A stretch of 64,000 nt of DNA from assembly GCF_055900595.2 (NCBI RefSeq), contig NZ_CM148325.1. One strand, written 5' to 3'. The translations under genes and the position numbers were made by a program. The first letter of the stretch is position 1. Each line of letters opens with the position of its first letter. Below, piece after piece: positions 9,340-10,728 of this stretch. The notes below the pieces were generated by a model. That model was not told the DNA's origin. It searched no databases and worked only from the letters and a program-made list of their open reading frames with translations.

Positions 9340-9380
9340 CCAGGAAAAAGTCTTAGGCATCCCGGATTTTCTCTCATCCT

Positions 9381-9404
9381 CTTTCACTTTCATTTTCATA
9401 TAGT
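9381..9404 (+). promoter_or_regulatory. Candidate activator-dependent promoter: tandem CTTTCA-CTTTCA-TTTTCA followed by TATAGT
   Basis: Three tandem hexamers abut a -10-like TATAGT about 20 bp upstream of the SD-preceded ATG at 9424; no good -35. Confidence 0.3.
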
Positions 9405-9423
9405 CAGCAACATGGAGACGACC

Positions 9424-10728
9424 ATGCACGCACGTTCAGCGAGAGAGATTAATCAATGCTACCGGACATTACGTCCGCGATTGCTGATGTGCATGATTAT
9501 TGGCTACGCCGCATTTTATCTGACGCGAAAAAGCGTGAATTACGTCCTTCCGGCGCTGCAAACCGACCTCGGACTGGATAAAGGCGACATTGGCCTGCTG
9601 GGTTCGCTGTTTTATCTCAGCTACGGATTGTCGAAATTTACCGCCGGACTGTGGCATGACAGCCACGGACAACGCGGTTTTATGGGCGTCGGCTTGTTCG
9701 CCACTGGGCTATTGAACATGGTGTTTGCCTTTGGCGAATCACTTACGCTTCTGCTTGTGGTCTGGACACTGAACGGTTTTTTTCAGGGCTGGGGATGGCC
9801 ACCGTGTGCCCGCTTACTGACCCATTGGTACTCCCGTAATGAACGTGGTTTCTGGTGGGGCTGCTGGAATATGTCGATCAACATTGGCGGAGCGATTATT
9901 CCGCTGATTAGCGCCTTTGCCGCCCACTGGTGGGGCTGGCAGGCCGCGATGCTGACACCGGGGATTATCAGCATGGCATTAGGGATCTGGTTAACGCTAC
10001 AGCTTAAAGGCACACCCCAGGAAGAGGGATTACCGACGGTGGGTCAGTGGCGTCACGATCCGCTGGAATTACGTCAGGAACAACAAAGTCCGCCGATGGG
10101 GCTGTGGCAAATGTTGCGAACCACAATGCTGCAAAATCCGATGATCTGGCTGCTGGGTGTCTCTTATGTACTGGTTTATGTGATCCGGATTGCGCTAAAC
10201 GACTGGGGCAATATCTGGCTGACGGAAAGCCACGGCGTCAACCTACTCAGCGCCAACGCCACGGTAATGCTGTTTGAAGTGGGCGGCTTACTCGGCGCGT
10301 TATTTGCCGGATGGGGTTCGGATTTGCTGTTTAGCGGGCAGCGAGCCCCCATGATTTTGCTGTTTACCCTTGGGTTGATGGTTTCGGTCGCTGCACTCTG
10401 GTTGGCACCGGTTCATCACTATGCCCTTCTGGCTGTGTGCTTTTTTACTGTGGGCTTTTTTGTCTTTGGCCCGCAAATGCTGATTGGACTTGCGGCAGTG
10501 GAATGTGGACACAAAGCTGCGGCGGGTTCAATTACCGGATTTCTCGGCCTGTTCGCCTATCTCGGTGCGGCGCTGGCAGGCTGGCCGTTGTCGCTGGTTA
10601 TCGAACGCTACGGCTGGTCAGGAATGTTCAGTTTACTCTCGGTCGCCGCAGTACTTATGGGTTTACTGCTGATGCCGTTACTGATGGCGGGCATCACCAC
10701 CACTCACGCTCGAAGGATAAAACAATGA
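9424..10728 (+). CDS. MFS-family sugar-phosphate sensor/transporter homologue, UhpC-like
   Basis: ORF 9412-10728; strong similarity to UhpC (e.g. FGPQMLIGLAAVECGHKAAAGSITGFLGLFAYLGA); start set at ATG 9424 which has a GGAGA SD, 9412 is the alternative. Confidence 0.8.
   Translation: MHARSAREINQCYRTLRPRLLMCMIIGYAAFYLTRKSVNYVLPALQTDLGLDKGDIGLLGSLFYLSYGLSKFTAGLWHDSHGQRGFMGVGLFATGLLNMVFAFGESLTLLLVVWTLNGFFQGWGWPPCARLLTHWYSRNERGFWWGCWNMSINIGGAIIPLISAFAAHWWGWQAAMLTPGIISMALGIWLTLQLKGTPQEEGLPTVGQWRHDPLELRQEQQSPPMGLWQMLRTTMLQNPMIWLLGVSYVLVYVIRIALNDWGNIWLTESHGVNLLSANATVMLFEVGGLLGALFAGWGSDLLFSGQRAPMILLFTLGLMVSVAALWLAPVHHYALLAVCFFTVGFFVFGPQMLIGLAAVECGHKAAAGSITGFLGLFAYLGAALAGWPLSLVIERYGWSGMFSLLSVAAVLMGLLLMPLLMAGITTTHARRIKQ

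Follow-up and report, generated by a model that had tools for sequence, protein, structure and literature searches.

A uhpT-like promoter upstream of the uhpC-like and afuABC genes of Escherichia coli, with an inverted repeat rather than tandem hexamers as the candidate FusR operator

Introduction

Which DNA element would place the uhpC-like and afuABC genes under the control of the two-component system encoded next to them? We addressed this question in a 64,000-nucleotide stretch of the Escherichia coli chromosome (contig NZ_CM148325.1 of RefSeq assembly GCF_055900595.2; hereafter, the window, numbered from its first nucleotide), which lies beside tauABCD and carries the genes for the response regulator FusR, the sensor kinase FusK, the UhpC-like protein Z0461 and the sugar-phosphate importer AfuABC. 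A first-pass annotation, made from the nucleotide sequence without database searches, had drawn attention to the gap between the kinase gene and the UhpC-like gene, where three tandem hexamers abut a -10-like TATAGT, and had proposed an activator-dependent promoter at which the hexamers serve as binding sites for the adjacent regulator of the NarL family. Our analysis upholds the promoter and points to a different operator. We consider it probable that the 84-bp gap is a regulated uhpC-like/afuABC promoter built on the plan of the uhpT promoter, in which a 17-bp inverted repeat is the FusR site and the hexamers are spacer.

The elements of this promoter are as follows, with distances counted from the mapped transcription start.

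9300-9315, no strand assigned: CRP-like site TGTTA-N6-CCACA within the last kinase codons, centre 9307.5, that is, -104.5 (conservation)
9340-9356, no strand assigned: 17-bp inverted repeat CCAGGAA-AAA-GTCTTAG, a UhpA-type box and candidate FusR operator, centre 9348, that is, -64 (conservation, matrix)
9364-9379, plus strand: proximal conserved block GGAyTTTCTCTCATCC, -48 to -33 (conservation)
9381-9398, plus strand: three hexamers CTTTCA CTTTCA TTTTCA, T-rich spacer, -31 to -14 (conservation)
9399-9404, plus strand: -10 element TATAGT, -13 to -8 (conservation, mapped start)
9412, plus strand: transcription start site, +1 (Cappable-seq gene-associated start, NZ_CP008957.1 443688 (-), 7 of 8 conditions; PMC10469882)
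9414-9417, plus strand: Shine-Dalgarno sequence GGAG, 1.48 bits, 6 nt before the ATG at 9424

Results

A promoter with a -10 element and no -35 element

We collected 80 orthologous loci; they represent about 25 Enterobacterales genera, among them Klebsiella, Citrobacter, Serratia, Enterobacter, Buttiauxella and Photorhabdus. In these loci, all six genes, for the regulator, the kinase, the UhpC-like protein and AfuABC, were found wherever the DNA of a locus reaches. Conservation is expressed throughout as mean information, in bits per position, over 78 distinct orthologous sequences, and the local background lies at 0.5-0.65 bits per position. The same promoter module is present in all 79 loci that span the kinase-UhpC-like junction, and the alignment of the gap is free of indels from the kinase stop codon to the -10 element, with the exception of one extra base in the Kosakonia/Phytobacter group. 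Transcription start sites were taken from Cappable-seq of E. coli O157:H7 EDL933 under 8 conditions (PMC10469882 Tables S4/S5), and their coordinates were transferred to the window through the EDL933 record (L087), with the mapping verified.

The mapped start and the conservation together establish that a promoter is present and that TATAGT is its -10 element. In 7 of the 8 conditions, transcription starts at the equivalent of 9412, seven bases after TATAGT, and thus within the interval, 9405-9412, in which the first-pass annotation had expected it. Three positions of the -10 element, T1, A2 and T6, are invariant and A4 is kept in 97% of the sequences (mean, 1.59 bits); the variants seen, namely, TATAGT, TACAGT, TACATT, TACACT and TATACT, are those expected of a -10 element. 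The absence of a recognisable -35 element was likewise borne out, given that the best match to TTGACA at spacers of 15-21 nt is 2 of 6 bases and that the gap holds no -35/-10 pair by consensus scan. The layout, a -10 element without a -35, is accordingly the activator-dependent one that had been predicted, and control at this promoter would, as proposed below, be positive. No terminator is predicted in the kinase-UhpC-like gap, and the small open reading frames that overlap it are not conserved as such, the conservation of the alignment being motif-like rather than codon-like. In Raoultella planticola (L078, ~6590-6790), a ~190-bp element, which we take to be ERIC/IRU-like, is inserted at the TATA of the -10 element and parts the box and the proximal block from it.

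The length of the gap follows from the choice of start codon. It is 72 bp, the figure originally given, from the end of the kinase stop codon (9339) to the first in-frame ATG at 9412, and 84 bp when measured to the ATG at 9424, which is the NCBI start in the closest genomes. The latter ATG and its GGAG are conserved across genera; the ATG at 9412 is not. Because the mapped +1 is the A of the 9412 ATG, a start there would imply a leaderless mRNA. In O157/O145 genomes, RefSeq has the UhpC-like gene start at the ATG equivalent to 9412, and for the closest relatives of the window it uses 9424.

A conserved inverted repeat matches the core of the uhpT operator

Directly after the kinase stop codon, 40 bp upstream of the hexamers, lies the box CCAGGAAAAAGTCTTAG (9340-9356), which is conserved at 1.60 bits per position and the centre of which, at 9348, falls at -64 with respect to the start at 9412. 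In Buttiauxella, Rahnella and Photorhabdus, the box is a perfect palindrome (forms CCAGGAAAAATTCCTGG, CTAGGAATAATTCCTAG and CTAAGAATTATTCTTAG). It is the only strong match to its matrix in the window (29.3 versus 10.5 bits), and one box per locus was found in the 80 loci; no second box that would point to autoregulation was detected upstream of fusR or elsewhere in the loci scanned. A scan of the K-12 uhp region (10 kb, both strands) with the matrix returned a single strong match, of 17.2 bits versus 2.9 bits for the next unrelated site. This match, CCTGGAAAATTTCTTAG, is identical to the box at 14 of 17 positions, scores 7.4 bits on the other strand and lies exactly at the midpoint of the large uhpT-promoter inverted repeat.

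The proteins point in the same direction as the box. FusR is 49% identical to K-12 UhpA, and its top NCBIfam model is UhpA, with a score under the model cut-off; a stretch of the C-terminal DNA-binding region, KTVHVHRAN, which we read as the putative recognition helix, is identical between the two. For FusK, the top NCBIfam model is UhpB (33% identity to K-12 UhpB), and Z0461 matches the NCBIfam UhpC model at 588 bits versus a cut-off of 564 (53% identity to K-12 UhpC), so that fusR, fusK and z0461 are adjacent signalling genes of the UhpA, UhpB and UhpC types. The box is the likely docking site of a phosphorylated FusR dimer, and a far better candidate than the hexamers; from the sequence comparison, we infer that FusR would bind there.

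Two further conserved elements flank the box. The proximal block (mean, 1.50 bits) holds the most invariant bases of the region, C9373, C9375, A9376, T9377 and C9378 being the same in all 78 sequences, and is separated from the box by a linker of 0.64 bits per position. It shows no match to the box matrix and might represent a weak activator site or a surrogate of the -35 element. On the other side, the CRP-like site, with 8 of 10 core matches, occurs at the same offset in 76 of the 78 distinct orthologous sequences. Third-codon positions carry 1.92 bits inside this site versus 0.58 bits for 27 others nearby, which shows a DNA-level constraint atop the coding one. A regulatory element appears to be embedded in the coding end of fusK, and CRP would bind at -104.5. 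At the end of the kinase gene (window 9297-9318), the codons GTT AAC CTG CCC ACA are almost invariant at their synonymous positions from Escherichia to Photorhabdus.

The tandem hexamers are promoter spacer

The hexamers are present as first described, that is, CTTTCA at 9381-9386, CTTTCA at 9387-9392 and TTTTCA at 9393-9398, followed by TATAGT at 9399-9404, by direct reading and by script. As an array, they are unusual: the 64-kb window has 2 places with three hexamers in tandem and no more than one mismatch, versus 0.15 expected from 100 first-order Markov simulations. Tandem Repeats Finder, at score 30, does not call the array, and elsewhere in the window the hexamer motif recurs only as chance-level two-mismatch matches inside annotated coding regions. 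Besides this array, the window has one three-fold tandem hexamer, TATTGG CATTGG TATTGG at 1606-1623.

Conservation is distributed unevenly over the array, with 0.90, 0.28 and 0.85 bits for hexamers 1, 2 and 3, respectively. Only TTT at 9382-9384 and TT at 9394-9395 are widely kept, so that hexamers 1 and 3 rise above the background through their T-runs alone and hexamer 2 does not rise above it. The triple TTTC pattern is limited to a clade of Escherichia, Klebsiella, Citrobacter, Raoultella, Trabulsiella and Serratia (about 30 sequences), and even there the hexamers are no better kept than the linker (1.37-1.63 versus 1.28 bits). What is constant across the 78 sequences is the length of the stretch. 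Thus, the hexamers are promoter spacer and not an operator, and the triple TTTC is a clade-specific elaboration the copies of which could be gained by slippage.

Copy number varies little within the species. Among the E. coli genomes that carry the locus, 517 of 519 have three hexamers and 2 have a fourth; the latter are New Zealand food isolates, ERL05-1306 (L003) and ERL04-3476, with an additional 6 bp, TTTCAT. In the longer allele, the proximal block and the -10 element no longer stand at the distance that is otherwise constant, and because the length of this stretch is invariant elsewhere, we would expect the four-hexamer allele to be defective.

Expression and alternative roles of the hexamers and the inverted repeat

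During exponential growth, the start-site signal at 9412 is 12 in LB and 62 in glucose M9; in stationary M9 cultures, it reaches 423. In strain Sakai at glucose exhaustion, afuA is up 37-fold and ECs0416 about 12-fold (PMC2241611), and a 32-fold RpoS dependence has been reported for fusR (PMC2907692). These data fit control by catabolites and by stationary phase. Upon entry into stationary phase, fusR rises together with z0461 and afuA, a correlation only.

The same Cappable-seq data contain a start site on the opposite strand.

9385-9397, minus strand: antisense start site with a -10-like GAAAAT, the reverse complement of 9392-9397 (Cappable-seq 443715 (+), 8 of 8 conditions)

Transcription from this start, at 9385, begins within hexamer 1 and proceeds into the 3' end of fusK, and GAAAAT corresponds to hexamer 3 in reverse complement. 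In E. coli, the hexamers might hence matter mainly on the other strand, as the -10 element of a constitutive antisense promoter. The idea draws on the detection of the start at the window-9385 equivalent under all conditions and, by reading, on the position of GAAAAT at -12 to -7 of it; given, however, that non-canonical starts without a known function number in the thousands in the same study (PMC10469882) and that no -35 or extended -10 was found by reading, we regard it as unlikely. An antisense promoter is, in any case, compatible with the assignment of the hexamers as spacer and not exclusive of it.

Less likely again, and in our view improbable, is a repression operator, in which phosphorylated FusR or another protein bound to the hexamers at -31 to -14 would block RNA polymerase. 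The position in the core promoter is typical of repressors, and such an operator would account for the repression of z0461 by FusKR that has been reported (PMC6199705, PMC11644481). The conservation and motif arguments that weigh against activation through the hexamers apply here as well, however; FusR, sharing KTVHVHRAN with UhpA, should favour the box over CTTTCA; and the joint rise of fusR and z0461/afuA in stationary phase, correlative as it is, runs opposite to simple repression.

The proposal from which we started, that the adjacent NarL-family regulator activates the promoter through the hexamers, is not supported, and we give it very little credence. It could appeal to the statistically unusual array, to a real -10 element adjoining it with no -35, and to the triple TTTC kept in the close clade. 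Yet, an activator bound at -31 to -14, in the core-promoter spacer, would clash with RNA polymerase; hexamer 2 is at or below the background, falling from 0.28 bits overall to 0.22 bits in the 48 more distant sequences, and the conservation within the close clade is no better than that of the neutral-looking linker. The hexamer region, furthermore, resembles neither the box nor its half-site, scoring -15 bits against the conserved operator matrix and at best 4.6 of 15.5 bits for a half-site, the NarL heptamer TACYYMT has no match on either strand of 9330-9430, and a far better candidate site lies upstream.

Equally remote is the notion that the inverted repeat acts not as a protein site but as an RNA hairpin that stabilises the fusRK transcript at its 3' end or weakly terminates it, for which the place of the repeat directly after the stop codon and the co-variation of its arms between taxa (CCAGG/CCTGG, CTAGG/CCTAG, CTAAG/CTTAG) might be cited, but which is at odds with the lack of a T-run after the repeat and of a predicted terminator, with a fold of 9330-9430 no more stable than that of shuffled sequences (z = +0.27), with the absence of any Rfam match in 9000-9800 at E <= 1, with the match of the repeat to a UhpA DNA site at a fixed distance from the -10 element, and with the invariance across many genera of the imperfect CCAGGAAAAAGTCTTAG, with its two mismatched pairs, which points to base-specific contacts rather than pairing.

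Genes, operon structure and distribution of the locus

The genes on either side of the promoter, and the promoter of fusR, are the following.

7111-7145, plus strand: fusR promoter TTGCCA-16-CATGAT with start site 7145 (consensus scan and Cappable-seq 445955 (-))
7169-7798, plus strand: response regulator FusR (Z0463), UhpA paralogue
7798-9339, plus strand: MASE1 sensor kinase FusK (Z0462), UhpB paralogue
9424-10728, plus strand: UhpC-like major facilitator superfamily (MFS) protein Z0461 (annotated start; ATG conserved)
10725-14961, plus strand: afuA (10725-11756), afuB (11825-13903) and afuC (13915-14961), sugar-phosphate ABC importer (NCBI annotation)

A second Cappable-seq start site of fusR, 446045 (-), corresponds to 7055 of the window. 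The locus is the OI-20 island of enterohaemorrhagic E. coli (EHEC), in which fusR and fusK are followed by the uhpC-like z0461 and afuABC; the identity of OI-20, the designation of FusR and FusK as Z0463 and Z0462 and that of the MFS gene as z0461 follow previous work (PMC4546632, PMC6199705), and the import of sugar phosphates by AfuABC has been demonstrated (PMC4546632). In the window, the afuA start overlaps the stop codon of the UhpC-like gene by 4 bp. Of the 79 loci in which this gap is measurable, 78 have one of between -4 and +57 bp, and the UhpC-like gene and afuA are thus co-transcribed. A separate afuA promoter was considered and rejected, the gap being too short in nearly all loci. 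The remaining locus (L065) has a 138-bp repeat-element insertion between the two genes, and the element there (~7900-8100) is similar to the insert in the R. planticola promoter.

The fusRK/uhpC-like/afuABC cluster is found in 519 of 5426 complete E. coli genomes, including those of isolates from dog, pigeon, poultry and water. This distribution, together with the spread over some 25 genera, conflicts with reviews that describe FusKR as limited to EHEC O157:H7 or as a recent acquisition, possibly from Enterococcus.

Discussion

A model of the promoter and the evidence against it

Taken together, these observations suggest a scheme in which a constitutive promoter upstream of fusR (start 7145) would supply the regulator and the kinase, and read-through past the kinase gene, which lacks a terminator, might give a basal level of the UhpC-like protein. 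On a signal, phosphorylated FusR would bind the box at -64 and probably the proximal block too, which, at -48 to -33, would stand in for the -35 element, and would recruit RNA polymerase to this -35-less promoter with the assistance of cyclic AMP-bound CRP (cAMP-CRP) at -104.5. Beyond the proximal block, the scheme envisages a T-rich stretch of fixed length (19 bp, 9380-9398), the -10 element, then a leader of 12 nt that contains GGAG, and translation from the ATG at 9424. The output of the operon would be more UhpC-like protein and more of the AfuABC importer.

Several lines of evidence weigh against this scheme. Repression of z0461 by FusKR has been reported (PMC6199705, citing Pacheco 2012; PMC11644481), and the direction of control proposed here is for this reason an inferred one; according to reviews and a transcriptome study, fucose is the signal that FusKR senses, and the fuc genes are repressed along with z0461. 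The published FusR footprint at ler is unlike the box (-6.2 bits) and bears no resemblance to the proximal block either. Even when no sugar phosphate is added, ordinary media support activity of the promoter, which is thus not strictly silent when uninduced. As for the likeness to the uhpT promoter, the pairwise alignment is, on its own, only modestly significant (32 of 2000 shuffles), and the matrix of the proximal block finds no match to the weak UhpA region of the K-12 uhpT promoter. Finally, one half of the CRP-like site, TGTTA, is imperfect, and a score of 8 of 10 core matches often arises by chance.

Implications for the FusKR system

A wider reading, to which we assign slightly less than an even chance, is that the ancestral and main role of FusR, FusK and Z0461 is sugar-phosphate sensing of the UhpABC type, whereby the system, aided by CRP, switches on its own sensor partner together with AfuABC through a uhpT-like promoter, with cross-activation between it and the Uhp system being possible. 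Indeed, given the shared KTVHVHRAN and the nearly identical boxes, the FusR and UhpA systems could activate each other's promoters, which, if real, concerns strains that carry both fusRK and uhp. FusKR is cited as an EHEC-specific, fucose-sensing virulence regulator and AfuABC is needed for gut colonisation by Citrobacter rodentium; should the wider reading be true, the published view, in which FusKR is a fucose sensor confined to EHEC and a repressor of z0461, would either lack a part or hold only under certain conditions. The promoter map provides targets for mutation, namely, the start at 9412, the -10 element at 9399-9404, the candidate operator at 9340-9356 and the CRP-like site at 9300-9315, through which the signal, activation or repression by FusR, and cross-talk with UhpA can be addressed. 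More generally, a striking tandem repeat beside a -10 element need not be an operator, and here comparison across genera shifts the candidate operator 40 bp upstream.

Comparison with known promoters

Among the known systems with which this promoter can be compared, phase-variable promoters, as in Haemophilus and Neisseria, carry repeat tracts between the -35 and -10 elements, and slippage shifts the copy number. A tandem repeat in the spacer and a slippage-type change of copy number are found here as well; by contrast, there are three copies only, nearly all E. coli carriers have the same number and the length is constant among the orthologous sequences. A phase-variable switch was therefore rejected, the fourth copy, in just 2 of 519 genomes, being a rare mutation rather than a programmed one. 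The operators of NarL and NarP (TACYYMT, 7-2-7) are recognised by regulators of the same family as FusR, which read short repeats as dimers. The hexamers differ from them in being unspaced direct repeats of CTTTCA, and the conserved box differs in being a 7-3-7 inverted repeat with CYAGGAA half-sites. The RcsAB box, which we take to be TaAGaatatTCctA, has half-sites, TAAGAA and TTCTTA, very like those of the Photorhabdus box CTAAGAATTATTCTTAG, but with two bases between them versus three in the box described here; we regard this as a resemblance only.

The closest parallel is the uhpT promoter of E. coli. At uhpT, a strong upstream UhpA site adjoins a weak downstream one, and CRP is centred at -103 (PMC4790336, PMC5352689). 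Both promoters have T-runs shortly before a -10 element that lacks a -35, an inverted repeat of the UhpA type with its centre near -64, a proximal element ending in TCTCA 22 nt before the -10 element and, some 104 bp upstream and overlapping the end of the gene before it, a CRP-type site (a putative one here), and both are served by a regulator with KTVHVHRAN. We presume that the UhpA sites at uhpT extend from -80 to -50 and from -50 to -32, and that '-64 element' is the term in use there. The distance from the centre of the CRP site to the -10 element is 91.5 bp in both cases, partitioned by the centre of the box into 40.5 + 51 bp here versus 39.5 + 52 bp in K-12. The two are not identical, however: the box described here has the opposite orientation, lies 1 bp nearer to the -10 element and lacks the outer arms GGCAAAAC/GTTTTGCC of the K-12 site, and the CTCATCC of the proximal block differs from the uhpT promoter. 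FusR, unlike UhpA, has been reported to respond to fucose and to repress, and the cargo is the ABC importer AfuABC rather than the UhpT antiporter. Moreover, whereas the uhpT promoter follows uhpC, the promoter analysed here is placed between the kinase gene and the UhpC-like gene, so that the putative sensor partner is part of the regulated operon and a feedback loop would result. The promoter in front of uhpC-like/afuABC is a paralogue of the uhpT promoter.

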